From Chiloscyllium plagiosum (Eukaryota), in NCBI RefSeq assembly GCF_004010195.1, contig NC_057719.1, positions 39,312,712-39,357,203 on the forward strand: DNA of 44,492 nt, given 5' to 3'. The number at the start of each line of letters is the position of its first letter. Positions within the stretch are counted from its first letter, which is position 1. Positions 4,724-36,776 of this stretch are shown in pieces. The notes under the pieces are model-generated. The model was not told the DNA's origin, did not search any database, and saw only the letters and a list, made by a program, of their open reading frames with translations. The translations under genes were made by a program, and so were the position numbers.

Positions 4724-4941
4724 GGCAAAAGTGAGGACTGCAGATGCTGGAAACCAGAGTTTAGATCAGAGTGGTGCTGGAAAAGCACAGCAGGTCAGGC
4801 AGCATCCGAGGAGCAGGAAAATCAATGTTTCTGGCAAAAGCCCTTCATCAGGATGAAGGGCTTTTGCCCGAAACGTCAATTTTCCTGCTCCTCATATGCT
4901 GCCTGACCTGCTGTGCTTTTCCAGCACCACTCTGATCTAAA
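4724..4941. mobile_element. Fold-back Penelope-derived short element, family A, copy P1
   Basis: ~90-bp inverted arms (4759-4849 / 4852-4942). Matches the terminus of the coding PLE at 23164. Degenerate TSD ccccaggaccaaagatcta / ccccagacaagatcta. Confidence 0.85.
4822..4852 (-). ncRNA. Minimal hammerhead-like motif, family A, decayed
   Basis: Reverse complement cCTGATGA-a-gggc-tttt-gcca-GAAAcattga. The opposite arm retains GGGCTTTTGCCC-GAAACGTC. Confidence 0.6.
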
Positions 4942-6403
4942 CCCCAGACAAGATCTATCCCAGAAGACTGTGATGCAAGGGAGGAAATAGCTGAGACGTT
5001 AACTGGATATCTTTGCAACCTCTTTGGCCTCAGGCAAGGTTCTAGAGGCCTGGAGAATGGCCAAAACTGTTCCTTTGTTTAAGAAGGGAAATAGTGATAA
5101 TCCAGGTAACTACAGGCTGATGAGCCTGGCGTCAGTGGTGGGGAAGCTGTTAAGAAGACAGTGAGAGACAGGACTTTTTCACATCTGGAAACAAATGGAC
5201 TTGATAGGGATAGGCAGCATGGATTTGTGCAGGGAAGGTTATGTCTCACCAACTTGATTGAGGTTTTTGTGGAGGTAACAAGAATGATTGATGAAGGAAG
5301 GGCAGTAGATGTTGTCTACATGGACTTTAATAAGGTATTTGAAAAGATACCTCATAACAGTCTAGTACAGAAAATAGAGGCTCATGGGATCTGGAGTGAG
5401 CTGGCTAGATCGATACAAAACTGGCTCAATCATTGAAGACAATAGCGGTGGAAGGGTGCTTTTTGGAAAGGAGATCAGTAATTAATGTTGTGCTGCAGGG
5501 ATTAGTGCTGGGATCTTTGTTTATAGTACATATATTATATGTAGGAAAATGTGGGTGGTCTCATTAGTAAGGTTGTGATGATACCAAAATTGGCAGGTTG
5601 CAGAAAGGCAGATTGTCAAGGGATACAGTGGGATATGGATAGATTGCAGATTTGGGCAGAGAAAGGCAGGAGGAGTTGAATATGGACAAATGCTGACTGG
5701 TGCATTTTGATAGGTCAAATTCAGATGTGAATTATACAATAAATGGCAGAACCCTTAAAGCATTAACATCTGGGTGTAAATATCCACATATTCCTGAAAG
5801 TGGCAACACAGATGGATAAGATGGTAGATAAGGTTTATAGAAGGTGCATACACCTCGCACACCTTCATTGACTGTGGCATCGAATATTAAAGTTGGCAAA
5901 TTATGTTAGAACTATATAAAACTTTAATTAGGCCACATTTAGAAAACAGCATGCAGTTCTATTCGCCAAACTACCAGAAGGAGATGGATGCTTTGGAGAG
6001 GGTGTAGAGATGGTTTACCAGCATGTTCCTAGTCTGGAGAGTTTTAGGGATGAGGAGAAGTTGGGTAAACTCAGATTTTTTTCATCAGAAAGACAGAGGC
6101 TGAGGGGCAACAAGTGATCAAAATTGAGAGACGTAGATAGGATGGATAATCTGAGGCTTTTCCCCAGGGTGGGAAAGTCAATTGCAAAAGGGCACACGTT
6201 CTTACCTTAAGAGGGGGTAAAGGTTAGGGGAGAAATGCAGGCAAAACTTTTCAGAGGGTGATGGGTGCCTGGAAGGCACTGCCTTGGATTTGGTGGAAGC
6301 AGGCATGTTAACAACATTTACGGCATATCTTGATAGACAGATGAACAGGAGATGAACAGAAGGATGCAAACCATGTAAGGGCAATGTGTAGCTGGTCTAA
6401 GTA

Positions 6404-6433
6404 AGAATTAGAATTAGAATTAGAATTAGAATT
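6404..6433 (+). repeat. (AGAATT)5 microsatellite in the CR1 3' UTR
   Basis: Directly visible. Confidence 0.9.
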
Positions 6434-7730
6434 GGTGTACCAAAGGGCCTGTGCCTGTGCTGTATTGTATAAGTCTACAGTGGACCAAATGGGAGGAGGG
6501 GGGAGACATTCAAAAAGAAGCCGGGGAGAGTACAGGTCCAACATAGTACGTTTAAAGGGAAATGAAGGAGCAATAAGTTCACAGGGCTTATTGGGCGTCG
6601 AGGACAATTAGGACTGCACAGAGAAAGTAGGGCATTTAGCAAGTTTGAAGGGAGCAATTCAGCTGTGGCCCTAAGGGAATATAGGAAGTGTAGGAGGGAA
6701 CTTAAGAAGAGCAAAAAGGGGCATGAAAAATGACTTACGAACAGGATTAGGAAGAATCCTAAGATATTTTATAAATACACTAAAAGGAAGAAGTTCCCAG
6801 GGAAACAGTAGGACCCATTAGGGACCAAGGGGGCAACCTGTGAGTGAAGCCACAGGATATTGGAAGGTGGTTGAATAAATACTTCTTCTCTTCGGTCTTC
6901 ACTCTGGAAAAGGAGAATATAGGTACGAATTCAGGAAAAAGGGACTGGGAGGAACTTGCACAGGTGACATAGAAAATGGGAAGGTATTGGAGGCTGGTAG
7001 GCTTAAAGCCAGACAAGAACACTGGCCCAGCTGAAGTGCACCTGCGAGGCGAGGCAGAAAATCGCAGGGGATCTGACACAAATTTTTATTTTCTCTCTGG
7101 CCACAGGGAAGTGCCAGAGGACTGGAGGACAGGTAATGTCATTCCACATTTTAAGAGGGATAGTAGAGGTAAGCCAGGAAATTACAGACTGATGATTGTC
7201 ACGTCAGTGGTAGGGAAATTATTGGAGAAAATTCTGAAGGGAATTAATACCCACTTGGACAGACATGGGCTAATTAGGGATAGTCAGTGTGGCTTCATCA
7301 GAGGGAGATGATGCCTAACAATTTTTTTGAAAATGTAATCAAGCATGTGGATGACAGAAATTTAGTTAATGTAATTTATATTGATTTTAACAAAGCTTTT
7401 GACAAGGTCCCAAACAGGGCACTGATTGAGAAGGTTAAAGCACATGAACTGAGGGAAACTTGATGAAATGGATCAGAAATTAGCTTAGCAATAGGACACA
7501 AAAGATAATGGAAGAAGGCTGTTTGAGTGACTAATGACCACTGTCCATTGGTGTACCACAAGGATCAACATTGGGACCCTTATTGTTTGTTATAGATGAA
7601 AATATGAGAGGAATGTTAAGCAAATTTGCAAGATTGTTAGAGTGGTTAATAGCAAAGAAGTTAATTATAGTTTACAGGAATATATAAATGGGTTGGTCAG
7701 ATGGGCTGACCAGTGGCAGATGGAATTTCA

Positions 7731-8062
7731 CAGAATGATTGAAATCCTACAGCGTGGAAACAGGCCATTCAGCCCATTGAGTCCATACTGACCCTCTGAA
7801 GAACATCCCATCCAGATCCAACCCTCTACCCTACATTTCCCATGGCTAATCCACCTAACCTACATATCCCTAGTCTTTATGGGCAATTTTGCATGGCCAA
7901 AGCACCTAACCTGCACATCTTTGGACTGTGGGATGAAACTGAAGCACACGGAGGGAGCCAATGCAGACATGGGAAGCATGTGCAAATTCCAGTCACCCAA
8001 GGTGGAATTGAATCTGGTGCTGAGAGGCAGCAGTGCTAACTAGTGAACCACCGTGCCACCCT
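7731..8062 (-). mobile_element. HE1-type SINE inserted in element A RT region
   Basis: Same head, body and tail as 3767-4126; host WQMEF / ..KWEVMHF rejoins across it. Confidence 0.9.
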
Positions 8063-9846
8063 CAGAAGTGGGAGGTGATGCATTTTTGAAGAAACAAGAT
8101 GAGGGAGTATTTTATGAATGGCAGGACACTGGGTAGTTTAGAGAAACAGAATGATCTTAGGGTAATTATTCACAGAGCCCTGAAGGTGGCAGAGCATTGA
8201 ATAGGATAGTTAAGAATGCACATGGGCACTTGCTTTCATCAGTGGTAGCACAGAGTATAAGAGCAAGGAGTTGTACAGAGTGTTGGTCAGGCAATAACTG
8301 GAGTACTGTGTGTAGTTCTGGTCACTTCACTACAGGAAGTATGTGACAGCACTAGAGGGGGTCCAGAGTATGGTCACCAGGATACTTCCTAGAAATGGAG
8401 AAATTGAGCTGTAAGAAGAGATTAGATAGGCTTGGATTGTTTTCTTTAGAGCAGAGAAGACTGAGGAGGGGGGCATGATTGAGGTGTGTAAGATTGAGGG
8501 GTAGGGACAGGGTGAATAGAGAACAGCTGTTCCCCTTGGTTGAGTGATCAATCATAGTTTTAGTGTAAGGGGCAGGAGGTTCAGAGAAGATTTTGAAAAA
8601 AAATGATCAGTCAGTGGGTGGTGGGAATCTGGAATGTATTGCCTGAAAAGGCAATGGAGGCTGGAAATTGTATAACCTTTAAAAAATATTTGGATGAGTG
8701 CTTCAAATATCCTAACAATCAAGGATATGGGCCGAGTGCAGGAAATTGGGATTAGCACACTTTTAGTTATGTTAGTGCAGGCTCGATGGGCTGAAAGGTG
8801 TTTGCTGCACTGTATGACTCTAGGAATCCGTGAGTATTCGTCTTCTAGAGAGTGAGAATGCAGGGGTAATGTAGATAATAAAGAAATGGTGGATGAAACA
8901 AATAATTTGCTTGTCTCTTCACTAAAGAGGATACAAAAAAGAATATTCCAGTAATATCTGTAAATCAGAAAGAAGAGAGAGAGGAAATTAATGAAATTAT
9001 CATTAGGAAAGTGGCTAAAAGCAAACTTGCTGAAATGACAACCACAAGGGAAGTTGTACTAAGCAAACTGATGGAGTTGTATGTTAGAAGATACCAGGTC
9101 CCAGTAGACTAAAAGAGGTGACTAATGAGTGAGTAGATGCATTGGTGTTAACTTTCTAACATTTCCTTGATTCAGAAAACATTCCATCAGACTGGAATGT
9201 TGCAAATATAACCTCTTTATTCAAGAAGGGGAGAGAGGCAGAAAGTAGGAAACTATAGGCCTGTTGTTTTGACATCTATCATGAGAAACATGTCAGAATT
9301 GATCATGACAGAAATTATAGGAGTGCATGTAGAAGTACTAAAGGTAATCAGGAAGAGACTGTGTGGTTTTGTCAAGAAGGAATTGTTAATAAATTTATTG
9401 GAATTATTTGAAGGAATAACATTTGCTATAGATAAAAGGGAGTCTGTAGACACGCTGCAGTTGAATAGTTGAATTTCCAGAAAGTGTTTGATAAGCAATA
9501 CAAAAGGTTGCTGCAGAAAATAAAAAGCTGAGTGTAGGGGTAACATATTAGCATTGGATAGAAGATTGGCTGGCAGAAAACAGAGTATGCAGACCTGGGT
9601 CTTCACCTGATTGGCAGGTTGTGAGGAGTATGGCTCTGCTAGGTTCTGTGCTGGGTCCTCAACCTTTTATAATTTATGTTCATGACTGAGATAAGAGGAG
9701 TGAAAGCATGGTAGCTAAGTTCACAGATCACACCAGGAACTGTAGAAAAGTTAAGTTCTGCAGATGACATAGGAGGTTACTGATTGATTGATTGATTGAT
9801 TAAGTGTGAGTGGGCAAAAATCTGCCAGATGAAGTCCATATTTTTA

Positions 9847-9947
9847 ATATTCAGACATGTTATTAATAACCTCTGAAGCAGATGGGACATGAACGCAGAC
9901 CTTCTAGCTCAGAGGTAGGGACATCACCACAGCACCACAAGAGCCCC
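9847..9947 (-). mobile_element. Short tRNA-derived SINE-like element (~110 bp family)
   Basis: Reverse complement gggctcttgtggtgctgtggtgatgtccctacctctgagctagaaggtctgcgttcatgtccc...; homologues at 25150-25238, 23110-23163+24864-24890 and 36790-36870. Confidence 0.65.
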
Positions 9948-10085
9948 CCAAATAGAGTATAATGTGGCAGAAGTAAAATATTCACTTTGTCAGAAAGAAT
10001 TTTTAAAAAGTGAAGTATTATTTAAATGGAGAATGACTGTTGAAATTGAAGTGCAGAGAGATTTAGTTGTTCTAGGGCATGAGCT

Positions 10086-10297
10086 CGAGAGTGTGGTGCT
10101 GAAAAGGCACAGCAAGCCAGGCAGCATCTGAGGAGCAGGAGAATTAACGTTTCGGACATAAGCTTTTCATTAGGAATGAGCCTGATGAAGGGCTTATGTC
10201 CGATACGTCAATTCTCCTGCTCCTCTGATGCTGCCTGGTCTGCTGTGCCTTTCTATTCTAGACCCTGATCTCCAGCATCTGCAGTCCTCACTTACTC
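10086..10297. mobile_element. Fold-back Penelope-derived short element, family A, copy P2
   Basis: Inverted arms centred at ~10178; CTGATGA at 10182-10188. TSD ctagggcatgagct (10072-10085) / ctagtgcacgagct (10298-10311). Confidence 0.85.
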
Positions 10298-11234
10298 CTA
10301 GTGCACGAGCTGCAAAGGGTTGGTATGCAGGGACAACACTTGATCCTCTCCTTTATGCAAAATTAATTGAATTTAAATGTAAGGTTGTTATACCACAGTT
10401 ATACAGGATACTGGTAGGTCACATCACAAACAATTTCAGTCTCCTTTTTGAAATAAGGATGTAAATGCATTGAAGGTAGTTCAGAGGAGGTTTACCAGAT
10501 TCATAGCTGGAGTGAGTTGGCTGTCTTCTGAAGAGAGGCTGGACAGACTGGGCTTGTTTCCATTAGACCTTAGAACAGTGAGGCGTGACTTAATTGAAAT
10601 GTATAATATCCTGAATGGTCCTGAAAAGATGGAAATGGAAAGGATGTTTTCCTGTGTGTTAGTCCAGAACTAGGGACCATTGTCATAAAATGCCAAAAGG
10701 TAATAGTAAAACAGTAGAAGGGATTTTTTTTTTGTCTCAGTAGTTTGTGAGACTTTGAAACTCTGCCTCAGAAGGCTGTGAGGTGGGATCATTAAATATC
10801 TTTAAGGCAGAAGAAGGTAGATTCTTGTTGGACAAAGAAATCAAATGTTATTTGGGGAAGGTGAGAGTTTGGAATGCGGAACAAATAGTTCAGCCATCTT
10901 TTTGAATGTGGAGCAGAATCAAGGGGCTGAATAGTCTACTTCTGTTCCTATTTTGTATGTTCATGTAGAAAAGAAAGTTGGAAAAATACAACATTTTTTA
11001 AAAACTGTTCATTCCAAAAGGCATTTAAAAATGAAGATAAGCAAGTGAAATTATTGAAATAGCAATATATTGAATGAGAATGAAATGCAATTTTACAATT
11101 TCTGGACATGAGAGTCTGAACACTGGTGAACTCTTGGTTTTATTAGGTTTAAAAATCAGAAGTGAATGTAGGTTAAAGTTATCAATACTAAACTACTTTT
11201 TTTGCTATACTTAAAACTATGTTGCGGATACCTA

Positions 11235-11505
11235 TAAAAAGGAACAGGAGTACGCTATTTGTTCCTTCAAGCTTGCTGTCATTCAATATGCTCTATGATC
11301 ATGGCTGATTATCCCACTTGGTGTCCTGTTCCTACTTTCCCTCTATACCCTTTGATTATTTTATCTCAAAGAACTATGTTTAACTCCTTCTTGAAAGCCA
11401 CCTCAACTCCTTTCTATGACAGAATTCCACAGTCTCCCTATTTTTTGGGTGAAGAAATCTCATCTCAATCCTAAATAGCTTACCCTATATCCTTAAACTG
11501 TGACA
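11235..11505 (-). mobile_element. Decayed CR1-clade 3' end
   Basis: Similar to the 3' end at 15624-15910 (ggaacaggagta...ccattc...tatgatcatggctgat; agaattccaca). Confidence 0.7.
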
Positions 11506-14500: not shown

Positions 14501-14825
14501 AAATTTGTTTGCATTGGGACAGTTTTACAAGTGCAGACAGTAAACAATGAGAAGTATTAGCTTGCTTTCAGTTTAAAAGGATCAGAGTTTTTATTTTGCT
14601 TAGGGGAAAATCCCATGGTATAGAAAGCTTTTGTTTTAAATGTGCAGCAGTCCTTGTTGAAGTTAGATGTGTGAAATAGATTCTCCTAGAGAAATTAGTT
14701 AGTCCAGAAAAGTTAGGAAATGGGTTACCTGAGTTTTATTCGAAATCTCCAGACCAGAAGTGTTTGTTTAGAACCAGGAGAGATTATTTGAAGGTGGGAA
14801 AGTCTAGGTGCAGATATGATTAATA

Positions 14826-15143
14826 AAGATTAGATTAGATTAGATTACTTAGTGTGGAAACAGGCCCTTCGGCCCAACAAGTCCACACCGACCCACCGAA
14901 GCGCACCCAACCAGACCCTACATTTACCCCTGCACCTAGCACTATAGGCAATTTAGCATGGTCAATCCACCTATCCTGCACATTTTTGGACTGTGGGAGG
15001 AAACCGGAGCACCCGGAGGAAACCCACGCAGACACGGGGAGAGTGTGCAAACTCCACACAGTCAGTCGCCTGAGGCGGGAATTGAACCCGGGTCTCTGGC
15101 GCTGTGAGGCAGCAGTGCTAACCACTGTGCCATCGTGCTGCCC
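14826..15143 (-). mobile_element. Young HE1-type SINE with (TAATC)n tail
   Basis: CpGs retained, intact A/B boxes, gattagattagattagatta tail, short ataaa(a)g flanking repeat. Confidence 0.95.
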
Positions 15144-21975: not shown

Positions 21976-23163
21976 TCAAGTTAGTGAAACATGATTTCCC
22001 ACATACAAAGCCATGTTGACTATCTCTCATCAGTCTTCATTTCTTTTGTGTGATAAGCTTCTGTTTAATTTTTGAAGTTAGATCTGCAACATTCCATACT
22101 TGTGTATCAATGTGAAACCACCTCCCTTAAGTTGAAAAGAGAGCTATCAAGCCACATTTCAGTTTGGGATCAAAATTGCCCAGTAACAACATCAGCTGGG
22201 ATTGTAACCATTGTACCTTTCGTTGTGATCATTGTTTGGATTCCTTACAAGTGTCATCCACCACTTGAGAGGGTAGTCTTGATCTGCTGCACTGTAGGAT
22301 TCTATGATTCAAGGAGACATTCACTTGTTTTGTTTTGAGGAATGAGAATCTCAGGAAGTTGACCAGTATAGAACAAAAGTATAATGGTAGCTACCTGGTG
22401 GTCTTTTGGTGGTTACAGGCAAGTTAGAATTGATTCCATTTTCATTAATGAAGGCTCTAAGGGATCTAGAGGCATGGTAAGATGTGGAGTGTTCACTTTA
22501 ACCTTAATTATAGAAGGATCTTTTACCTCTGACTAGTTACAAAATCACCTTGGCATATACTTTCACATTTTACAGAAGTCATCAAGTTTATCATGCTAGA
22601 TACGGAAGAATTATACTTAATAAACCCTGTGGAACTATTTGGTCCACTTAGAGAGCACCAGCTCGTACACCTGGCTCCTTGTATTCTGTTGATTGAAGTC
22701 TGTTTTTCTTCTTTACTTTTGCACCTAGCTGCTAAATGTTACTGCATATTAATCCTTGCTAGTCACTACCTCTGATTGGCTTGCAGTTGCATGAACAGCA
22801 TATGATTAGTCTCAGTTTGGCAAGGCAGTCTATGACCAATAACTCATTTTTTCCACCAAACTCACATAATTTCGTGTTATTTTCTGCCAAGTTCCCTAAG
22901 GTGTTACTAACCTTTTAAAAGGACAGTACTATCTCTTTTACAGATTATATTTTTCCAGAAATAGATGGGGGAACAGGCTTTAGGAGAATTCTTATTGGAC
23001 CGTATTAGATATGTTCCAAGAATCAAATTTATTGCACTGAATTTGTACAGCCTAGATTGTCTAAAAAGAAATCGCTATATAGCTAACTGAGGCAATAATG
23101 TAAGAAATACATGGTGGTAGTATCCTTACCTCTGAGCCAGAATTTGGTTTCAAATCCCTCCTG

Positions 23164-24863
23164 GGAGAAAGTGAGGACTGCAGATGCTGGAGATCAGAGT
23201 CGAAAGTATGGTGCTAGAAGTCAGGCAGCATCCAAGGAGCAGGAGAGTCGATGTTTCTGGCATAAGCCCTTCATCAGGAATGTGGGCTGGGGGCTGAGAG
23301 ATAAATGGGAGAGGGTGGGGCAGGGGGGAAGGTAGCTGAGAATGGGATAGGTAGATGAAGATTGGGAAGAAGGTGATAGGTCAGAGAGAAGGGTGGAGTG
23401 GATAGATGGGAAAGTTGATGGACAGGTTAAGAGGGTGGTGCCGAGTTGGAGGTTTGGGACTGGGATAATGTGGGGGGAGGGGAAATGTGGAAACTGATGG
23501 AATCCACAATGATCTCATATGGTTGCAGGGTCTCAAGGCAGAATATGAGTCATTCTTCCTCCAGACGTCGGGTGGTAAGTGTTAAGTAATGGAGGAAGCC
23601 CAGGACCTGCATAGCCTTGGCGGAATAGGAGGGGAAGTTGAAGTGTTCAGCCACGGGGTGGTGGGGTTGGTTGGTGCAGGTGTCCCAGAGGTGTTCTCTG
23701 AAATAATCCACAAGTTGGTGTCTTGCCTCCTCGATGTAGAGGAGACCACATCAGATGCAAAGGACATAGTAGATGACATTGGTGGAGGTTAAAGCAAATG
23801 TCGTGTCAGATATGGAAGGATCCTTGGGGGCCTTGGACGGAGGTGACGGGGGAGGTGTGGCACAGGTTTTGCACTTCCTGCGGTGGAAGGGGAAGGTGCT
23901 GGGAGTGGGATTGATCTTGGAGGGAGAGTGTGGAGTTGCCGAGAGAGTTGCGGGGAGATTGGTCTCTCTGGAATGATAATAGGGATGCAGAGGTAAATAT
24001 ATCTCTGATGGTGGGGTCCATTTGTAGGTGGCAGAAGTGGCGGAGGATGATGTGATGTATACAGAGGTTGTGGGGTGGAAGGTGAGGAAGAGGGGCGTTC
24101 TGTCCTTGTTGTGTTGGGAGGGATGGGGTTTGAGGGCGGAAGTGTGAGAAGTGGAGGATATGCGCTGGAGGGCATCATCGACCACGTGGGGGTGAAATTG
24201 CGGTCTTTGAAGAAGGTTATCTAGAATTTTCTAAGGTAGAAGTGGTCATCCTGGGAACACATGCGACGGAGGCAGAGGAATTGAGAATAAGAGATGGCGT
24301 TTGTACAGGAGGTAGAGTGGGAGAAGATGTAGTCCAGGTAGCCGTAGGAGTCGATGGACTTGAGTAGATGTCCGTAGTTGGTCGATTGCTGGAAATGGAG
24401 ATGGAGAGGTCCAGGAAGGGGAGGGAGGTGTCCAGGAGAATTTGAGGTCAGGATGAAAGGTCTTAATGAAGTTGATGAACTGTTCAACCTCCTCGTGAGA
24501 CCACAAGGTGGCACCAATACAGTCGTCGATGTAGCGGAGTAACAGGTTGGGAGTGGCGCCTGTGTAGCTGTGGAAGATGGAATGTTCCATGTAGCTAACA
24601 AAGAGGCAGGATTATCTGTTTGGTTTGATGGAAGTGGGAGGATTGGAAGCAGAAGTTGTTAAGGTGAGGACCAGTTCAGCCAGGCGGATGAAGGTGTCAT
24701 TGGAAGATTACTGGTTGGGACGGCGTGACAGGAAGAAACGGAGGGCTTGGAGGCCTTCGTCGTGGCAAATGGATATGTACAGGGACTGGATGTCCATGGT
24801 GAAGATGAGGCATTGGAGCCAGGGAAATGAAAGTCTTGGAGGTGGTGAAGGGCGTGGGTGGTG
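23164..24863 (-). mobile_element. Penelope-like retroelement, family A: decayed RT plus GIY-YIG endonuclease and 3' pLTR
   Basis: RT motifs FTMDIQSLYISI and LLRYIDDCIG; CCHH-like linker (RRKCKTC); GIY-YIG NVIY...CGLLYI.E, VAEHFN, LEEE.LIF.LETLQP. Inserted into a short SINE with a degenerate tccctcctg / tcccatctg repeat. Confidence 0.92.
23247..23280 (-). ncRNA. Minimal hammerhead-like motif in the PLE pLTR, family A
   Basis: Reverse complement ttcCTGATGA-a-gggc-ttat-gcca-GAAAcatcgac, sense to the PLE ORF and downstream of it. Confidence 0.7.
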
Positions 24864-25149
24864 TCCCATCTGTTCCACAGGTGTATAATAGCCTTTTTGA
24901 ACTGAAAAAAAGGAAGGTATCATTGCAAAGTATTTAGGAAACACAAGTCACAAGAACTACATTCAAAACTATATTACAAAACCTAATTTCAAAAGAGGTT
25001 AGTAACATATTTTAAAGAATGTGGCTGTTGCTCTTTTAAGCACTTTAAGTTAAAAAGCGAAGCCAATTCAGGCCAAGAACTGTGACCTCAAACAAAGCTG
25101 TTTACTTGCCACAATTTACATTGACTTTTTTTAAAAATCCTATTTTCGT

Positions 25150-25433: not shown

Positions 25434-28259
25434 TAGAGTCATAGAATCATAGAGATGTACAGCATGGAAACCCATCCATGCCGACCAGATATCCCAACCC
25501 AATCTAGTCCCCCCTCTCACCCTAAATCTATGCCCTCTAGTTCTGGACTCCCCGACCCCAACGAAAAGACTTTGTCTATTTATCCAATCCATGCCCCTCA
25601 TAATTTTGTAAACCTCTATAAGGTCACCCCTCAGCCTCCGATGCTCCAGGGAAAACAGCCCCAGCATGTTCAGCCTCTCCCTGTAGCTCAAATCCTTCAA
25701 CCCTGGCAACATCCTTGTAAATCTTTTTTGAACCCTTTCAAGTTTCACAACATCTTTCCAATAAGAAGGAGACCAGAACTGCACGCAATATTCCAACAGT
25801 GGCCTAATGTCCTGGACAGCCGCAACATGACCTCCCAACTCCTGTACTCAATACTCTGACCAATAAAGCATACCAAACGCCTTCTTCATTATCCTGTCTA
25901 CCTGTGACTCCACTTTCAAGGAGCTATGAACCTGCACTCCAAGGTTTCTTTGTTCAACAACACTATCTAGGACCTTACCATTAAGTGTATAGGTCCTGCT
26001 AAGTTTGTTTTCCCAAAATGCAGCACCTCGCATTTATCTGAATTAAACTCCATCTGCCACTTCTCAGCCAATTGGCCCATCTGGTCCAGATCCTGTTGTA
26101 ATCTGAGGTAACCCTCTTCGCTGTCCACTACAATTCCAATTTTGGTGTCATCTACAAACTTACTAACTGTACCTCTTATGCTCGCATCCAAATCATTTAT
26201 GTAAATGACAAAAAATAGAAGACCCAGCACGGATTCTTGTGGCATTCCACTGGTCACAGGCCTCCAGTCTGAAAAACAGTCCTCTACCAGCACCTTCTGT
26301 CTTCTACCTTTCAGCCAGTTCTGTATCCAAATGGCTAGTTCTCCCTGTATTCCATGAGATCTAACATTGCTAATCAGTCTCCCATGGGGAACCTTGTCGA
26401 ACGCCTTACTGAAGTCCATATAGATCACATCTACTGCTCTGCCCTCATCAATCTTCTTTGTTACTTCTTCAAAAAACTCAATTAAGTTTGTGAGACATGA
26501 TTTCCCACGCACAAAGCCATGTTGCCTATCCCGAATCAGTCCTTGCCTTTCCAAATACATGTACATTCTGTCCCTCAGGATTCCCTCCAACAACTTGCCC
26601 ACCACCCGACGTCAGGCTCACCGGTCTATAGTTCCCTGGCTTGTCTTTACTACCCTTCCTAAACAGTGGCACCACGCTTGCCAACCTCCAGTCTTCCGGC
26701 ACCTCACCTATGACTATCGATGATACAAATATCTCAGCAAGAGGCCCAGGAATTACTTCTCTGGCTTGCCACAGAATTCCAGTTACACCTGATCAGGTCC
26801 TGGGGATTTATCCACCTTTAACCGTTTCAAGACATCCTGCACTTCCTCCTCTGTAATCTGGACATTTTGCAAGATGTCACCATCTATTTCCCTACAGTCT
26901 ATATCTTCCATATCCTTTTCCACAGTAAATACTGATGCAAAATATTCATTTAGTATCTCCCCCATTTTCTGTGGCTCCACACCAAGGCCACCTTGCTGTT
27001 CTTTGAGGGGTCCTATTCTCTCCCTAATTACCCTTTTGTCCTTAATATATTTGTAAAAACTCTTTGGATTCTCCTTAATTCTATTTACCAAAGCTATCTC
27101 ATGTCCCCTTTTTGCCCTCCTGATTTCCCTCTTAAGTATACTCCTACTTCCTNNNNNNNNNNNNNNNNNNNNNNNNNNNNNNNNNNNNNNNNNNNNNNNN
27201 NNNNNNNNNNNNNNNNNNNNNNNNNNNNNNNNNNNNNNNNNNNNNNNNNNNNNNNNNNNNNNNNNNNNNNNNNNNNNNNNNNNNNNNNNNNNNNNNNNNN
27301 NNNNNNNNNNNNNNNNNNNNNNNNNNNNNNNNNNNNNNNNNNNNNNNNNNNNNNNNNNNNNNNNNNNNNNNNNNNNNNNNNNNNNNNNNNNNNNNNNNNN
27401 NNNNNNNNNNNNNNNNNNNNNNNNNNNNNNNNNNNNNNNNNNNNNNNNNNNNNNNNNNNNNNNNNNNNNNNNNNNNNNNNNNNNNNNNNNNNNNNNNNNN
27501 NNNNNNNNNNNNNNNNNNNNNNNNNNNNNNNNNNNNNNNNNNNNNNNNNNNNNNNNNNNNNNNNNNNNNNNNNNNNNNNNNNNNNNNNNNNNNNNNNNNN
27601 NNNNNNNNNNNNNNNNNNNNNNNNNNNNNNNNNNNNNNNNNNNNNNNNNNNNNNNNNNNNNCCCTTTCTTATTTCTCAGTTCCATCCAAATAACTTCCCT
27701 GGATGTATTTCTGGGTATATCCTCCCTCAGCACAGCTGTAATGCTATCCCTTATCAAAAATGCCACTCCCCTCCCTCTCTTGCCTCCCTTTCTATTCTTC
27801 CTGTAGCATTTGTATCCTGGAACATTAAGCTGCCAGTCCTGCCCATCCCTGAGCCATGTTTCTGTAATTGCTATGATATCCCAGTCCCATGTTCCTAACC
27901 ATGCCCTGAGTTCATCTGCCTTCTTCCCTGTTAGGCCCCTTGCATTGAAATAAATGCAGTTTAATTTATTAGTCCTACCTTGTTCCTCCCTGCCCTGACT
28001 CACTTCTGTTCTCAGCTGTACCCATCCTAGTTTAAATCCTCCCAAGCAGTTCTAGCAAATTTCCCTGCCAGTATATTAGTCCCCTTTCAACTTAGATGCA
28101 ATCCGTCCTTCTTGTAGAGGTCACTTCTACCTCAAAAGAGATTCCAATGATCCAAAAACGTGAACCCTTCTCCCATACACCAACTCCTCAGCCATGCATT
28201 CATCTGCTCTATCCTCCTATTCCTTCCCTCACTAGCTCGTAGCACTGGGAGTAATCCAG
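25434..28259 (-). mobile_element. Relatively young HER1/CR1-type LINE (ORF1 end, ORF2, 3' UTR) spanning an N-gap
   Basis: APE CIYFNARGL...AITETWL; RT 212-aa ORF with QHGFVRGKSCLTNL, YMDFSKAFD, SKFVDDTK; C-terminus RPLLEYCVQFWSP. Frameshifted. Confidence 0.95.
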
Positions 28260-29814
28260 TACAAATGTCTTACATTGACCACGATTAAATAAAATACAAT
28301 AATAATACCTTACTTGGTTGATCATTACATACAACAAAATGATAATTAATTGTTGAAAAATAAACTCAAACTTGCAGCATGTCAATTACCACGGGTCAAC
28401 AGTTGATGGTTTGCTGGACTTATAGGAGGCCAACTGAATAAGAAAGGTCGAGGTCTTTATGGTTGGTCTCATCTGTTGAGGTCCCATCGTTTATATGACA
28501 TTGTTAACTTGTTTATGGCCAACAGATTGAGATTCTGCATAATATCTGCAGATCCTTGGAAGGAAACAGAGTCAAAGAAATTGAGAACTGTGGTGAATTT
28601 GACAACCATAGGCAATGCATAGCAACCTGCTTAAGTTGGTAGACGTTCTTCCTTCAGGAGTACTAATGTTAGCAACCACCTGGTGGGAAATACTGCTCAT
28701 CCTAAGGCAGTCAGTCCTATCCATGAAGCTTAATCCCTACCTGTAATCCCGATATTAGGGATATCAACTCCTGCAAGCTGGAGCCTTTTGTTCATCCTCT
28801 CTCTCTCTCATAGGTGAACAGTAGGTGATTGAAGAGAAACTGCCGCTCCTGTTGTTACTCTTCATTTGAAGACTAACGGCTCCCATGCTGATCTGAAAGC
28901 CAACAACTGCAAAATGTAGATGAAAGGCAAAAGAACTCCAACCACCGAAAGAACTCCAAATTAAGTCAAAGAGCAGTGAAAGCATATTCTCAAAGCATGA
29001 TCTACTGCAAAAAATTTCACTGAGGCAACAAAGCAAATGTGAGATCTCAGTGTTTAAAGGATTTCTTGGCTGCCACCTGATCAGCTACTTCAAATCACAT
29101 TGTCTTTCTCATTACTTTAGCAAGGATCTCAGAAAACTCCACGCTCACACAATTAAAATCAATTCAAAGTTAAAGAAGCAAATAAATTATCAATTGAGAT
29201 AGCTAGCATACTTCTTTCCCAAAGGTTTTGCAAATGTTGTATATTTCATTCAGGTTAAAGGCAAAGATTGGCTGAGTCCTACCACTTTCCCAGCACCCCA
29301 AAAATTTCAGTGTTTTTAACCTGTCATCAGCTTCCAAACCCACCTACTCTATCAGCTTAATAGTTCCCCATATCTCTGTGCTCTTGATTACCAAGACAAT
29401 TTAATCAACAGACAGTTATGATTAATTAATTTAAAACTACTGCATAATAAGAGCCCCAAACTTTAACTTTTGCTCTCGGTCTGATTGTTTCAGGTGTTAT
29501 TTACTGCTCAATGCTTTGTTATTGCTATTTGCATAGTGTAAACTGAAATTACTTTCATACACAGCAATTCAAATATAATATATTAAAATAGTTGCTAAAT
29601 GAGAAATTGGGGTAATTTTCAGCAAAAATGCTGGAGTTTATTTTCCATAAGATATTGTCCTGGCAGCACTGAGATGGAAATTCCACCTTATATTTCAAAG
29701 AAGAGGATTTTGCTTGGGTAAATTCCAAAGAAAAAGACACTAATGGAAAATTTATCATCTTGTTCTTAGCAGAGTTTGTCTCCTGTTTTCTGTTCCTGTC
29801 AATCTCCTAATGAC

Positions 29815-30110
29815 TATCACCATGTTACTAACAACTTCTGAAAGCTCCCTGTGGAGAGCAACCTGGCACTTCAAAATTATTTTCTTCGATTCGCTTCAAC
29901 TTTGAAGCTGGAAAATAAAATTGTGATTTGACTTTTTTTTCCTTTTAGATTAGATTACAGTGTGGAAACAGGCTCTTCGTATCACCATGTTACTAACAAC
30001 TTCTGAAAGCTCCCTGTGGAGAGCAACCTGGCACTTCAAAATTATTTTCTTCGATTCGCTTCAACTTTGAAGTTGGAAAATAAAATTGTGATTTGACTTT
30101 TTTTTCCTTT
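29815..30110. repeat. 131-bp direct duplication flanking a 34-bp retroposon tail
   Basis: 29815-29945 and 29980-30110 differ at one base seen (gaagct/gaagtt). The spacer is the minus-strand HE1/HER1-type 3' tail. Confidence 0.92.
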
Positions 30111-30124
30111 CTCAAAACACAAAG

Positions 30125-30960
30125 TAATTAGTAAGTTTGTAAATGACACCAGTGAAGAAGGTTATCTAAGATCACAAAGATATCTTGATCAGTTGTGTAA
30201 ATAGGCTAAAGAGTGGCAGATGGAGTTTAATTTGGATAAATGCCCAGGTATTTCATTTTGGTAAAAGAAACAAAGGCAAGACTTATGTAATTAAAAATAG
30301 GGCTTTGGGTACTGTGAGGGTACTGAGAGATAGTGAGGACTGCAGATGCTGGAGATCACAGTTGAAACATGCGTCACACGAAATGCACAGCAGGTCAGCC
30401 AGCATCCGAGGAGCAAGAGAGTTGACATTTCGGGCATAAGCCCTTAATCAGGAAGGGCTTCTGCCCGAAACATCGACTCTCCTGCTCCTTAGATGCTGCC
30501 TGACCTGCTGTGCTTTTCCAGCACCACATTTTTTGACTTTGGATATTGTTGTAGAACAAAGAGACCTAGAGCTTCACACATCTAATTTTTTTGAAGTTTG
30601 CATCACATATAGGTTGGTGAAAAGGCATTTAGCATGCTTGCCTTCAATGTTCAGATCTTTAGTATAGACGTTGGGGGATTTCAAGACTAGGGCACTTATC
30701 TTTAGGGTGAGAAGAGAAAGATTTTAAGGACTTGAGGGGCAATTTTTGTTTTTTTTACACAGTCGTTCATGTGTAGAATGAACTTCTGGTGTAAGTGGTA
30801 GCTGCAGCTATAGTTACCACATTTAAAAGACATTTAGATAAGGACATGAATAAGAAATATTTGAAGGGATATAGGCCAAGTGAAGGCAGGTGGGACTAAT
30901 TTAGTATGGGATTATGGTTGGTATGTACAGGTTGGACCCAAAGGTCTGTTCAGAGCTGTG
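30125..30960 (+). mobile_element. Decayed, internally deleted CR1/HER1-type 3' fragment
   Basis: SKFVNDT, WQMEFNLDKC and a 3' UTR like the other copies. Confidence 0.8.
30316..30536. mobile_element. Fold-back Penelope-derived short element, family A, copy P3
   Basis: Arms centred at ~30449 (gcccttaatcaggaagggc). TSD-like ctttgggtactgt (30303-30315) / ctttggatattgt (30537-30549). Confidence 0.8.
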
Positions 30961-31199
30961 TGTACCTAGGTATGGGAACAACCATGCTCTAGGTCAGCTT
31001 GTAAGTACCCACTTCTGCAAATATAAGAATAAACAGGAAATGGTAAAGGATTTACTGTAATATACTTTGGCTTTTCTCAGAAATATCAGATGTAACTGAT
31101 TATGTACTGTAACCGCAAATGGTTCATTTGGTAAAGCTAAATCATATTGATAGTTCCATACTGGACTCCCTGTTTGTGCTGAGTAAACTATTTAGAACA

Positions 31200-32020
31200 T
31201 AGCAGCAGGAGTAGTTCATTTGAGTTTGCCATTTAATGAGTTTGTGGTTCAGCTGATGGTGGTTATGACTCCACATTCCTGCCTGCTCCCTTAACCCTTC
31301 ATTCCATTGTCTGTCAAAATCTAACTCTACCATGAATAAATTCAATGATGTTGCCTCCACTGTGTTGTTGTCAGAAAGATGTTTCTCAACTCCATCTTAA
31401 AACGGAGACCTTTTATTCTTGAGCTGTGTTACCTATCTCCAGTCTCTTTTAAAAGTCAAATATACTTTCAGAATCCTGTCAATTCCTTTCACAATATGAT
31501 GTGTTTCAACAAGATCACTTTGCATCCTTCTAACTCCAAAGAATAAAAGGCTCAACATGTTCAAACTTCCTTCTTAAGATAACCCCTTTACCCCAAAAAT
31601 GAGCCAAGCGAACTTCCTCTTAATGCTCCTAAAGCAATTATATCCTTCTTCACATAAGGAGATCAAAACTATACAGTGTCAAGATGTGTTCTTACCAATG
31701 CCCTGTACAATTATAGGAAAACTTACTGACTTTTAGAATCCAGTCCTCTTGCAATAAGCAACAACATTCTATTTCCCTTCCAAATCACTTGTTGCAACTG
31801 CAAACTATCTTTTTTGTGATTCATATATCAGCACATCCACATCCTTCTGTACCTCCATGCTCTGCAGTCTCTCTTTTATTTAAATAGTGTACTGTTTCCT
31901 AATGTTCCTGCCATAGTGGATATAGTTCTACTTTTCCATGTGCCAATTTATTCCCCCATTCACATAACCTTCTGTAACCTTTTTAAGACTCTCTATCTTC
32001 TCTTGACAACCTACTTCGCT
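31200..32020 (-). mobile_element. Old CR1-clade 3' fragment
   Basis: Colinear with 15630-16520 (ggagatcaaaactatacag; cttaccaatgccctgtacaa). Confidence 0.7.
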
Positions 32021-32029
32021 CCCTTAAAA

Positions 32030-32155
32030 AAATCAAAGAACTGCAGATGCTGAAAATCAGAAACAAAAACAGAAATTGCTGAAAAAACTCAGCAGATCTG
32101 ACAGCATCTGTGGAGAAAAAGTAGAGTTTATGCTTTGGGCCCAGTTCTGAAGAAT
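32030..32155 (-). mobile_element. Probable decayed PLE terminus of a further family
   Basis: aactgcagatgctgaaaatc...ctcagcagatctgacagcatctgtggag parallels the family A terminus (actgcagatgctgga...cagcaggtcaggcagcatc) and is followed by ttCTGAAGAa. A similar relic lies at ~35505-35615. Confidence 0.5.
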
Positions 32156-32517
32156 AAAGGAACTCAATATTGTTTAAATGGAGAAGGATGGCGGAAAGTT
32201 GCAGCACAGAGAGATTTAGGAGTCCTCCTCCATGAATCATAAATAGCTAGCGTCCAAAAGCATCAAATAACGTGAGCATAACCAATCTTGATATTATTGT
32301 AGCATTTAGTCAAGGGCACCAAAATTTCCTAACAAAGTGAACTCAATGAGAATTGGGAGAAACTCTCTCTTGGTTAGAACTACACTTAACACAAGTACCC
32401 CTCCAAGACACCATCCTGACATGGAAAATATTGATGTGGAGGTGCCGATGCTGGAGTGGGGTGAGCAAAGTTAAAAATCACACAACACTAGGTTCTAGAC
32501 CAACAGGTTTATTTGGA

Positions 32518-32555
32518 AGTACTAGCTTTCGGAGCACTGCTCCTTCATCGGGTAG
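32518..32555 (-). ncRNA. Minimal hammerhead-like motif, family B
   Basis: Reverse complement tac-CCGATGA-a-ggagc-agt-gctcc-GAA-AGCT-A-gta: stem I tac/gta, palindromic AGCU, CUA triplet. Confidence 0.65.
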
Positions 32556-32966
32556 CTAGTGGGGCAGAATCATAAGACACAGAATGTATACCACAAGATC
32601 ATTAATTCAAACAACTGATATGATATATTGAACAAACCTAGATTGTTGTTAGGTCTTTCATCTTTCAGAAAGGGTTGCAGGTTTTGATTCATTAATATGT
32701 AAATCCCAAAAAGTCTTTCAAGTCACAGTCCCAATAAACCTAAGGTTTTATTTTTTAAAAAGTGACATCTCAGCTTAGACAATGCATTAAAGGTGTGAGG
32801 TTAGAGTCTGTCTGTATTCCAATCTTGAGTCAGATTGGTTCTATTTCCAAAGTAGGAATTTATAAAATGTCACATGGATTGACTGCCTGCAGACTGTGTG
32901 CTTTTGAGCAAAATAGAATGTATCTGCAAATACAATTCTGCAAATGCAAATTCACTCCATAGACTT

Positions 32967-32967
<1 letters not shown>

Positions 32968-32999
<32 letters not shown>

Positions 33000-33000
33000 G
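32968..33000 (+). repeat. (TG)n(AG)n compound microsatellite inside the PLE 3' region
   Basis: Directly visible. Confidence 0.9.
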
Positions 33001-33755
33001 AGGAGAGTGTGATGAAGTATAAGCCTGTGAGAGGGTGTGCATGTGGGTGACAGTGTGGGGGGTGTATGTCTGAGACATTGTGTTTATGACAGAGGGTCTG
33101 CATGAGTGTATGTGTGCTTGTGTGTGAGTCTATGTGACAGTGTATAGTGTACTGGGGTCACCTGTAGTGTGACATGAACCCCAGATCCCAGTTGAGGCCA
33201 TCCTCATGGGTTGGAATACAGACAGAGTCTAACCTCACACCTTTAATGCATTGACTAAGCTGAGATGTCACCTTATTTTTAATAAAACCTTAAGTTGTCT
33301 TGAGAATGTGACTTGAAACAAATTCTGGGATTTACATATTAATGAATCGAAACCTGCAACCCATTCTAAAAGGTGAATACTTTAACTCAGTTAAACCAGA
33401 TCTCATCCCATGAGATACTGCTTTCCATGCAGGCTCAGGTGTACTGCCTACTGATTTGGTTCGCCACACACCATTTTGTGGTCCATTACTAATTACTTGT
33501 AAAGCATGATTTATGATTGGACCTCCTAAACAAAAAAATCACAGGAGGGTGGGAAGGAACCCCAGGGCTGAACCAGGTCGGCTTAAGAAATATCTATTTT
33601 ACCAATGTATGCCTTCAAAATTCCTGAAATTAAATTATATTCCAGTGAGCATGCACTGATTTGAAAATATTTTTACTTGAATGGGATGGGACAGAAACTA
33701 GACAAAACAGTCAAAACATATGAGACACCATATATACTCCACTCATGAACTGTAA

Positions 33756-34095
33756 CTGCCGCACGATAGCTCAGTGGTTAGCACTGCTGCATCACAGTGC
33801 AAGAGACCCAGTGTTGATTCCACTCTCTGGTGACTGTGTGGATTTGGCACATTATCCCCATGTTGGCGTGGGTGTCACCCTGGATGCTCTGGTATCTGCC
33901 CACAGTCCAAGGATGTGCAGGTTAGGTGAATTGCCATGCTAAATTGCCCATCGTTTCCAGGATTAGCCATGGGAAATGTAGGGTAACATGGATAGGTAGT
34001 GGGTGGGTTTGGGTAAAATACTCTTTGGAGGGTCAGTGTGGACTCAATTGGCCGAATGGCCTGCTTCCATGCTGTAGGAATTCCATGATTCTATG
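33756..34095 (+). mobile_element. HE1-type SINE
   Basis: A box tagctcagtggttagc, body gatgtgcaggttaggtgaattg, tail ccatgattctatg. Confidence 0.9.
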
Positions 34096-34131
34096 GAAGG
34101 TTTAACAGCAATCTATGTTTGTTCGATATAT

Positions 34132-35132
34132 ATGGACTTTAGTAAGGCGTTCGGCAAGGTTCCCCATGGCAGACTGGTTGGCAAGGTTAGGTCTCATGAA
34201 TACAGGCAGAACTAGCTATTTGGATACAAAATTGGCTCAAAGATAGAAGACAGAGGGTGGTGGTGGAGGGTTGTTTTTCAGACTGGAGGCCTGTGACCAG
34301 GATGGAGTTTAATTTAGGTAAATGCGAGGTGCTGCATTTTGGGAAAGCAAAGCTTAGCAGGACTTATACACTTAATGGTGAGGTCCTAGGGAGTGTTGCT
34401 GAACAAAGGAACCTTGGAGTGCAGATTCATAGCTCCTTGAAAGTAGAATCGCAGGTAGATAGGATAGTGAAGAAGGCGTTTGGTATGCTTTCCTTTACTG
34501 GTCAGAGTATTGAGTACAGGAGTTGGGAGGTCATGTTGCGGCTGTACAGGACATTGGTTCGGCCACTGTTGGAATATTGCATGCAATTCTGGTCTCCTTC
34601 CTATCGGAAAGATGTGGTGAAGCTTGGAAGGGTTCAGAAAAGATTTACAAGGTTGTTGCCAGGGTTGGAGGATTTGAGCTATAGGATTTGAGCTATTCTG
34701 AGCTATAGTTGAATAGGCTGGGGCTGTTTTTCCTGGAGCATCAGAGGCAGAGGGGTGACCTTATAGAAGTTTATAAAGTCATGAGCAGCATGGATATGAT
34801 TAATAGACAAAGTATTTTTCCTGGAGTAGGGGAGTTCATAACTACAGGGAATAGGTTATGGGTGAGAGGGGAAAGATATAAGAGACCTAAGAGGCAACGT
34901 TTTCACACAGAGGATGGTACGTGTATGGAATGAGCTGCTAGAGGAATTGATGGAGGCTAGTACAATTGCAACATTTAAAAGTGATCTGGATGGATATACG
35001 AATAGGAAAGGTTTGGAGGGATATGGGCCAGGTGCTGGCAGGTAGGACTAGATTGGGTTGGGATATCTGGTTGGCATGGATGAGTTGGACCGAAGAGTCT
35101 GTTTCCGTGCTGTACATCTCTCTGACTCTATG
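34132..35132 (+). mobile_element. HER1/CR1-type 3' fragment with internal deletion at ~34300
   Basis: YMDFSKAF, RPLLEYCMQFWSP; closely matches the reverse complement of 25434-26420. Confidence 0.92.
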
Positions 35133-35200
35133 TAATATCAGTCGTATGTCACAATGAACTTGTGCTATAAATTCTGTATCTTATGATCCTGCTCCATTAG

Positions 35201-35238
35201 CTACCTGATGATGGAACAGTGCTCCGAAAGTTAATACA
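35201..35238 (+). ncRNA. Minimal hammerhead-like motif, family B right arm
   Basis: tac-CTGATGA-t-ggaac-agt-gctcc-GAA-AGTT-A-atac. Confidence 0.6.
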
Positions 35239-35699
35239 TCCAAAGAAACCTGATGGATTATAATCTGGGGCTGTGTGATTTTTAACCATGGAAAATATTA
35301 CCATTCCTTTGCTATCTGTTGGTCAAAATCCTAGAGGTCTCTCCCTAAAAGTACCTATGGGTGTACTTAGATCATACAAACAGCTGCAGTTCAAGAAAGC
35401 CACTCACCACAACCTAAAAGGACCATTAAGAATACACTGGCTAGTTAGCAATGGAAGCATACTTCCTAATAATTCACAGAAAGCTCATTGTCATCTTTTC
35501 CATTAAAGCAAAGTAGTGCAGATGCTACTAACCTGAAATAAAATTTAAAAAATGCTGGAAAAGGTGGACAAACGATAATTAGCGTTTCACTTGGATGAAC
35601 ATCTCTCAGAGAATTGACCCTAAGAAGGTGGATAGAAACCTCCCCCCCAACAGATCTGCCCACTGGTGCATTTGGGAACGGTCAAAAAAAGTTCCAATA

Positions 35700-36240
35700 T
35701 TACATTCCCACGTAAATACTTTGTTTTGTATTGGAATTTTGTGTGTTTAGCCCCTCTTTAAAAATGAATCCGCTCTTCCGCTTTTTAAACTAAATTAATC
35801 TTGCGCCTTTGTAGCTTTCCCCACCAACGCAGAGCCTGGGTCTCCGTAGCTGCTTTAAGTTCACGCGATCTGCCTTTCATTTGGTAGTGTCCGGTAGTCT
35901 GCGGTCGTCAGCTGGCATTGAATGCAGTAAATTCTCCTCGGAATGTGTGCTCTGTGTAGCAGTGGGAAAGGGGAGGGAACATGCTAGGACGAGGCGAGCT
36001 GTTAGCCTGGAGGAGGGAAATTCCTCAGGGGATCCAGGAATGCACTGACAGAGAGCAGGGTTTGGTGTCTGTGGGTTTTCAGAGAAAAAAAAACTAGGTT
36101 GATAAGTCAATCGCAGGAAAGGAAGAGCAATTGCGTATTTCACGCAGGAAGGCGGATGTTGATGTTGCAGTTTGTCATGAGATGGGGAGGAGGCCGGCTC
36201 AGAGCATAGCGGGTTAAATCAGAAAGTTCCGGAGCCTCTA
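35700..36240. promoter_or_regulatory. CpG-enriched non-repeat region, candidate promoter/enhancer
   Basis: About 20 CpGs in ~530 bp against CpG-depleted flanks; perfect kB site GGGAAATTCC at 36015-36024; ETS-like cttccg/caggaa motifs. Confidence 0.45.
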
Positions 36241-36590
36241 ACAGATGGGAAAGAATTAAGTGAGCAAACGAAAATGATAATTAGACAGAAATTCGACTGA
36301 AAATGCCTTACAATTTAGAAGACTCATATTAGTAAGTTTATTTTCACATGATTCTTACAATCCACAATAATTTTGTCAAGCGTCAGATGGCAGAGGGACC
36401 TCTTTCAAGATGTATTCCCACTATATCTAGACCTCAAAGTGACAAAATTCTCCGATGATGCCAGACCCTGGAGAATTCTCCAAGACCAAAATAACCATTC
36501 TGTGATTTCCCCGTTTTAAACCAGTCTGCTGAGATGCTAAGCTGCCATTCCACAATATAAAGATTTGTCACTTGACTACAATGTGGGAGG

Positions 36591-36776
36591 GTGTGGTGCT
36601 GGAAAAGCACAGTAGGTCAGGAAGCATCCGAGGAGGGGAAGAGTCCACGTTTCTTGATGAAAGGCTTTTGCCCGAAACGTCGACTCTCCTGCTCCCCAGA
36701 TTTTACCTGACCTGCTGTGTTTTTCCAGCACCACACTTCGACTCTAACCTCCAGCATCTGCAGTCCTCACTTTCGC
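36591..36776. mobile_element. Fold-back Penelope-derived short element, family A, copy P4
   Basis: Perfect 15-bp TSD ctacaatgtgggagg (36576-36590 / 36777-36791). Centre cgtttc-TTGATGA-a-aggc-tttt-gccc-GAAACGTC-ga. Confidence 0.9.

Follow-up and report, generated by a model that had tools for sequence, protein, structure and literature searches.

Complex insertions of endonuclease-positive Penelope-like elements (EN+ PLEs) have been described with inverted pseudo-long terminal repeats (pLTRs), an optional 31-bp tail on one arm, target site duplications (TSDs) of 8–10 bp and palindromes at head-to-head junctions (PMC3846280). Inverted 5′-truncated copies and a tail of 30–40 bp are given as general features of PLEs, their mechanism being called undefined (PMC8557442); the features are given likewise in PMC8969392. 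Variable inverted repeats and an internal TATA-less promoter are reported for Penelope of D. virilis (PMC2377424). The present work concerns four hairpin insertions of about 200 bp (c1–c4) and a decayed PLE (family A) in a stretch of 44,492 nucleotides from Chiloscyllium plagiosum (NCBI RefSeq assembly GCF_004010195.1, contig NC_057719.1, positions 39,312,712 to 39,357,203 of the forward strand). This whole stretch is referred to as the window, and positions are counted from its first letter.

For the anole element PAc (Poseidon; Frangieh et al. 2024), nicking and extension of both target strands and a predicted dimer are reported, together with two internal reverse transcriptase (RT) start sites whose spacing equals the tail and with uncleaved RNA as the main template (PMC11167929); the sections compared here do not deal with inverted insertions. 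The minimal hammerhead of metazoan PLEs comprises CUGAUGA, one extra base, stem II and GAAA-CG-UH, with palindromic 15.2/16.2; it occurs mostly in truncated copies, and in Schistosoma opposite-strand pairs lie 100–700 bp apart (PMC4209133). Non-coding, PLE-derived, hammerhead-bearing sequences have also been described as non-LTR retrozymes, in which units that each contain a complete hammerhead are arrayed head to tail (bioRxiv 10.64898/2026.07.22.740005).

The hairpins share with published EN+ PLE insertions the head-to-head truncated copy, the one-arm tail of 30–40 bp, the TSD, the short overlap or palindrome at the inverted junction and the hammerhead in the pLTR (PMC3846280, PMC8557442, PMC2377424). 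They differ in that the published examples compared here enclose open reading frame (ORF) sequence or captured host DNA, whereas c1–c4 consist of two terminal units in ~200 bp, in the length of the TSDs (13–15 bp versus 8–10 bp) and in that their tailed arms start within a 3-nt band. All features of an inverted-pLTR insertion of an EN+ PLE were found: a parent with RT and C-terminal GIY-YIG, the inversion, the tail, the TSD and a recognisable hammerhead. The elements are miniature PLE insertions with inverted pLTR and tail, a known architecture and not a new element class; their assignment as extremely 5′-truncated, ORF-less insertions of an EN+ PLE is, taken by itself, very probable. In twin priming of L1, both target nicks prime cDNA synthesis and the cDNA ends are joined by microhomology, and the inversions so formed join adjacent, non-overlapping parts of the RNA. 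The arms of c1–c4, in contrast, cover the same stretch and form a hairpin. Their two hammerhead motifs abut or overlap and are all degenerate, unlike the spaced pairs of Schistosoma (PMC4209133). The tandem units with complete hammerheads that mark non-LTR retrozymes were not found in c1–c4, which are head-to-head singletons with broken motifs; head-to-tail 118-nt dimers of the family A unit in public contigs are retrozyme-like. No paper on such shark hairpins was found in the literature searched; Repbase, Dfam and subscription papers lay outside this search and may describe solo inverted pLTRs.

Hairpins, parent element and target sites

All four hairpins were recovered where a first-pass annotation of the window had placed them, with the fold centres that it quoted (Table 1). 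Their arms are head-to-head copies of the last 65–130 nt of the family A PLE. As had been claimed, each element consists of the PLE terminus plus an inverted, truncated copy, and both arms match the 3′ end of the PLE at 23161–23280. The inverted, 5′-truncated head-to-head copy and a one-sided tail of ~35–40 nt were present in 4/4 hairpins. The end ...ctgcagtcctcacttt was confirmed on one arm only, the left arm in c1 and c3 and the right arm in c2 and c4, and this asymmetry corresponds to the published PLE tail. The short arm of c4 starts at the hammerhead GAAA, the 5′ half of the motif being missing from that arm.

The hairpins measure 186–221 bp. Self-inverted matches were obtained at 4759–4942 in c1 (92%, E 1e-72), 10103–10252 in c2 (85%), 30380–30518 in c3 (83%) and 36591–36736 in c4 (78%). 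When c1 and c4 were folded as RNA, z scores of −23.9 and −10.1 resulted, and 0/200 shuffles folded equally well. The earlier statements that hammerhead remnants lie on both strands and that long double-stranded RNA (dsRNA) could form hold as far as the sequence goes.

Table 1. Positions of the hairpins, their TSDs, the parent element and related copies in the window
Feature	Position	Strand	Description
c1 hairpin insertion	4724..4943	.	tailed arm 4724-4853 (PLE sense on -), short arm 4852-4942 (sense on +)
c1 junction			2-nt overlap GA between arms, read from alignment
c1 tail	4724-4758		35 nt
c1 left TSD	4713..4723	+	14-bp target minus 3 nt (deletion)
c1 right TSD	4944..4957	+	
c2 hairpin insertion	10086..10297	.	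short arm 10086-10180 (sense on -), tailed arm 10181-10297 (sense on +)
c2 junction			no arm overlap; short arm extends to 7 nt upstream of hammerhead core
c2 left TSD	10072..10085	+	14 bp, partner 10298-10311, 2 mismatches
c3 hairpin insertion	30316..30536	.	tailed arm 30326-30454 (sense on -), short arm 30452-30536 (sense on +)
c3 junction			3-nt overlap GAA
c3 left TSD	30303..30315	+	13 bp, partner 30537-30549, 2 mismatches
c4 hairpin insertion	36591..36776	.	short arm 36591-36654 (sense on -), tailed arm 36651-36776 (sense on +)
c4 junction			~3-nt overlap, about GAA
c4 tail	36737-36776		40 nt
c4 left TSD	36576..36590	+	15 bp exact, partner 36777-36791
Parent-type PLE, family A	23161..24870	-	5′-truncated, decayed; RT, thumb/linker and GIY-YIG remnants, pyrimidine-rich spacer, 120-nt terminal unit
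RT remnant with YIDD	about 24830-24438	-	
GIY-YIG remnant	to about 23520	-	
Minimal type-I hammerhead of terminal unit	23250..23277	-	C3 = 23277, predicted cut after 23250; degenerate
Control hairpin, second PLE family	40890..41598	.	arms ~300 bp, 79% alike; one-sided tail ~80 nt
Third PLE-type family	32432-33377		hammerhead-like motif 32551-32523, minus strand
Third family, second short copy	35129-35286		

The translation of 23150–24900 is interrupted by frameshifts and stops and contains YIDD, the thumb segment and a remnant of GIY-YIG. With the in-frame RT stretch as query, 524 protein matches at E ≤ 0.001 were obtained, and with a mostly out-of-frame ORF as query none of 525 candidate proteins matched. 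The full-length relatives P0079, P0120 and P0126 align over RT and endonuclease (tblastn, E down to 6e-40) and carry Pfam RVT_1 and GIY-YIG, one GIY-YIG score lying below the curated cut-off. Two close protein matches (62–66% identity) bear the source label whale shark. Pfam searches of five frame-shifted window ORFs gave nothing significant. The linker reads HRRKCKTC in the window copy, in which the first Cys is absent, and CDRRRCSTC in the relatives. A CX2-5CxxC linker between RT and EN is a feature of the Neptune clade (PMC8557442); the CxxC linker remnant suggests that family A may belong to this clade, whereas PAc is Poseidon (PMC11167929). No TSD was found around the PLE, and a pattern scan for the 22-nt tail motif gave 0 loci in viral contigs and 0 in metagenome contigs.

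TSDs were present on 4/4 hairpins, as annotated before; their lengths proved to be 14, 14, 13 and 15 bp for c1–c4 and not 13–19 bp. The hosts of c1 and c3 are a long interspersed nuclear element (LINE) RT remnant and a LINE remnant, respectively. When aligned to the uninterrupted LINE copy at 39440–39560, the two flanks of c1 have 14 nt in common, and this alignment ruled out a TSD of 19 bp; the target of c3 occurs once in an uninterrupted LINE copy at 651–914. An equal anchored repeat was found among 5000 random flank pairs at frequencies of 0.001 (c2), 0.0034 (c3) and 0 (c4). This test was ungapped; the gapped TSD of c1 scored 0 in it, and its length was taken from the LINE paralogue. In c3, part of the target recurs between the TSD and the element, as a second copy of 10 nt at 30316–30325; this suggests primer slippage during insertion. 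The hairpin annotated there is real, and these ten nucleotides belong to the target copy and not to the element.

CTA, CTAG, GTAG or CTG-like target bases precede four of the five tailed ends in the window (4723, 10298, 30325, 36777, 23163), and CTA/TAG-like bases fall inside the TSD in c1, c2 and c4. In each of the three public DNA runs described below, the consensus of the loose ends before 23164 has CTA as its last bases. These bases possibly reflect a preference of the endonuclease or a match between primer and template; PAc, in contrast, prefers ATT (PMC11167929).

Hammerhead motif and template boundaries

The layout of the hammerhead and its predicted cut position follow PMC4209133. Inner arm ends were read from the alignment and the centres and numbered from C3, which is 23277 in the body-linked copy; the values are uncertain by the length of the overlap. 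For c1–c4, respectively, the tailed arms end at −2, −1, −3 and −3 and the short arms at +2, −7, +5 and +19. The cut is predicted after +27. All eight inner ends lie upstream of it; the template was therefore uncleaved, and hammerhead cleavage was rejected as the source of the junctions. Seven of the eight fall at −7 to +5, beyond the whole ribozyme structure, and the sole inner end that would fit a stalled RT is that of the c4 short arm. The outer ends of the short arms share one alignment column in c1, c2 and c3 and lie nine columns earlier in c4.

The first-pass annotation had placed all centres at or within the ribozyme motif. They do lie in its 5′ half, and not at the predicted cut site. 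It is doubtful that the structure of the ribozyme focused the fold-back, as had been proposed: in the tailed arms the whole motif and the cut site were copied and the ends lie 1–3 nt past the 5′ edge of the core, and another PLE family of the window folds back ~270 nt away from its hammerhead. Run-off at the 5′ end of the RNA fits the ends of the tailed arms better than cleavage or stalling, and the hammerhead likely marks the template RNA's 5′ end rather than causing the fold-back. An intact core with stems was found in 0/9 hammerhead copies. A strict hammerhead scan gave nine matches, which included just two of the nine family copies and several chance LINE matches. Rfam gave five matches at E ≤ 1, none of which reached the gathering score; hammerhead was not among them, and sub-threshold microRNA (miRNA) matches were. 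RNAs of single units showed no unusual stability (z −1.2 to +0.6), and the core region of the body-linked copy is able to fold into a small alternative hairpin.

Contigs of three public runs (two species labels) were placed on 23130–24900 at 80% likeness, ~90,000–104,000 contigs being placed per run. Summed contig depth, as distinct from copy number, was at 23190–23249 37–55 times the median of 26 body bins and ~5 times the highest bin. Heterogeneous loose ends were found at 23282 in 654 (X1) and 615 (X9) contigs, with an agreement of 0.32–0.33, and at 23286 in 82 contigs of X5. Of 962 joints, 15 are listed, and the following counts refer to these. Opposite strands are connected by five joints, all linking 23277–23282 with 23199–23205. 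Two joints run head to tail, from 23279/23281 to 23164, and 23281→23164 is the best supported of those listed (44, 15 and 51 contigs). A tail-only tandem, 23196→23164, in which the 33-nt tail is repeated, was seen in 4, 6 and 6 contigs, and the remaining seven joints are skips. These data support three recurring boundaries, namely the tail end, the inner tail boundary and the 5′ edge of the hammerhead. Head-to-tail dimers of the 116–118 nt unit and tandems of the 33-nt tail occur in all three DNA runs; they are possible raw material for retrozyme-like arrays.

Origin of the fold-back

No junction is shared by any pair of hairpins (0/6). The proposed check for a recurring junction, which was to tell an amplified master from de novo formation, thus gave four different junctions in the four copies compared. 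Shared non-CpG derived variants numbered 10 in the true arm pairing, the highest value of 105 pairings (mean 2.4), with no contribution from c4. Both arms of one element were copied from one donor sequence. Given the unlike junctions and the private variants common to both arms, each hairpin was built at insertion; the arm-to-arm divergence of 9–22% across c1–c4 indicates insertion events of different age. In c2, the short arm has 6 nt that are absent from the tailed arm and the tailed arm has the tail that is absent from the short arm, so that neither is a plain copy of the other. The unlike junctions and the element-wise pairing of the arms support the suggestion that the hairpins arose independently, as fold-back products formed de novo in PLE retrotransposition.

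As the mechanism behind them, twin priming from both nicks with run-off near the 5′ end of an uncleaved RNA is slightly favoured, with a probability of roughly 0.55 for the whole. The RT/GIY-YIG protein would nick both target strands 13–15 bp apart, anew at each insertion; priming from one nick at the outer RT start site would yield the tailed arm, and priming from the second nick at the inner start site the short arm. The uncleaved transcript would start 1–7 nt upstream of the hammerhead core. RT would initiate near the 5′ end of this transcript, ~85 and 125 nt into the unit, and the cDNAs would run off at ~85–130 nt. At the staggered cut, antisense PLE sequence follows each 3′-OH end, beginning at the outer tail boundary on one side and at the inner on the other, as two primed cDNAs would give. 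Short run-off cDNAs would account at once for the hairpins and tandem dimers, for the sharp boundary and for the excess of terminal units, and c2 favours two cDNAs because each of its arms has sequence that the other lacks. The start sites of PAc, ~110–120 nt downstream of the hammerhead, are likened to the putative ones of family A (PMC11167929). Arm layout, de novo origin and uncut template are seen in the elements or follow from them; we infer the last step, in which the two short cDNAs would be joined head to head.

Several points weigh against this mechanism. Only four hairpin elements, c1–c4, were read whole. To obtain two overlapping, near-identical cDNAs, either strand displacement on one RNA would be required or a second RNA of the same donor. 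The run-off start 1–7 nt before the core is a putative RNA 5′ end, and the initiator-like TCATTCC at this boundary is one of 11 such motifs in 360 nt of the region, which makes it weak support. In Penelope of D. virilis, the point just upstream of the hammerhead is the end of an intron, 46+75 nt past the start site, and not an RNA 5′ end (PMC4209133, PMC2377424). The in vitro data come from a Poseidon element, and family A looks Neptune-like. No direct core-to-core fold-back is among the 15 of 962 joints listed, summed contig depth does not equal copy number, and the 11-nt deletion of the reference copy and its divergence near 23201–23220 and 23282–23289 can create or shift breakpoints. Finally, c1, c3 and c4 fit equally well with snap-back of a tailed cDNA; in c3 a 3-nt stem and a 5-nt loop can be read from the sequence.

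Snap-back, likewise a de novo PLE product, is judged less probable, but it is a serious rival for c1, c3 and c4. The 3′ end of the tailed cDNA would fold on itself at the quasi-palindromic core and copy itself; resolution of the hairpin at the inner tail boundary would then fall to the endonuclease or to the second target end. Self-priming has been proposed, with an antisense template (PMC3846280), and published views link the tail to resolution by the endonuclease (PMC8557442, PMC11167929). Private variants common to both arms are accounted for, as are the overlaps of 2–3 nt at three junctions (c1, c3 and c4); where tailed arms end at −3, in c3 and c4, their terminal GAA matches a TTC further back, and the alternative hairpin at the core of the body-linked copy would suit such folding. 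However, c2 would need a later one-sided deletion at its centre and c1 a loop of 1–2 nt or the later loss of 1 nt, and snap-back alone leaves the tail-only tandems (23196→23164) and the opposite-strand joints from tail to core unexplained.

An amplified non-autonomous hairpin retroelement, with retrozyme-like masters moved in trans by the PLE protein, had been offered as the other option in the first-pass annotation and is improbable. The elements are of similar size, the terminal unit is very abundant in the public contigs and forms head-to-tail dimers there, and non-autonomous PLE derivatives are known (PMC8557442; bioRxiv 10.64898/2026.07.22.740005). Against this, the four copies compared have no junction in common, each element carries its own subfamily variants on both arms, with the divergence given above, and not one of the nine hammerheads is intact; in the transcript of such a hairpin, the motif would be hidden inside a long duplex.

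Very improbable is a 5′ boundary set not by transcription start, but by RT stalling at the folded ribozyme, by a splice junction or by cleavage. The short arm of c4 does end at the 3′ base of stem II (+19), and the intron of Penelope in D. virilis ends at the 5′ edge of helix I (PMC4209133). The other inner ends, however, lie past the whole structure, the single-unit RNAs are not unusually stable, and cleavage is excluded by the position of the cut site. As to splicing, the short arm of c2 continues as CTCATTCC, which matches the AGGC start of the loose-end consensus at 23282, and hence no exon-1 sequence is visible. An origin as a miniature inverted-repeat transposable element (MITE) of a DNA transposon, suggested by the short, non-coding, palindromic form and by the palindromic 200-bp Harbinger repeats in frog (PMC5625713), has next to no probability, as symmetrical terminal inverted repeats are lacking, the TSDs are of 13–15 bp and unrelated in sequence, and the direct homology to the PLE terminus and the tail refute it.

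Neighbouring elements and meaning for PLE biology

A hairpin of a second PLE family served as control. Its TSD is 10–11 bp long (random-flank null 0.1%), and its arms end at 41267 and 41313, inside the ORF of the endonuclease end and ~270 nt upstream of its CTGATGA; the short arm ends within the stem II region of the hammerhead. In a third PLE-type family, an internal inverted piece at 33203–33377 matches 32657–32829 and does not include the hammerhead; no TSD was found for the copy at 32432–33377. Fold-back at the hammerhead was thus seen in 4/4 cases in family A versus 0/2 in the other PLE families, and, small as these numbers are, it appears specific to family A since the others fold back elsewhere. 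A stub at 32024–32160, ~73% like family A and antisense, ends in plus-strand CTGAAGA and may be a hammerhead fold-back whose second arm was lost. Two 131-nt direct copies at 29815–30110 are 99% identical and 165 nt apart, owing to recent tandem duplication or an assembly artefact. Assembly gaps (runs of N) at 27153–27661 and 39973–40610 each lie inside a young LINE copy, and the rest of the window consists mostly of LINE fragments.

The origin of tandem and inverted PLE insertions and of the one-sided tail is called unresolved in the published accounts (PMC8557442, PMC11167929). Many TSD-bounded products of 200 bp with a sharp 5′ boundary could allow twin priming and snap-back to be separated by genome data alone. 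Such hairpins resemble MITEs or miRNA precursors, as the sub-threshold Rfam matches illustrate, and are at risk of being annotated as such. Among LINE-class repeats of a lizard, Penelope is the second heavily A-to-I-edited one, and in frog editing is dominated by a palindromic repeat (PMC5625713); by analogy, self-folding PLE stubs could be a notable source of dsRNA.

Tentatively, and at less than even odds, a shark-type genome may be pictured in which a PLE mostly retrotransposes its 125-nt leader, by means of two RT starts near the 5′ end, an uncleaved RNA and a dimeric RT/endonuclease that uses both nicks. If this is true, hairpins, tail-plus-unit inversions and tandem dimers would be one combinatorial set made from three fixed boundaries, and the second half of the PLE cycle, as yet unsolved, could be read from them as from a fossil record on the scale of a genome; in sharks they would possibly also be a major dsRNA/ADAR substrate that folds on itself.

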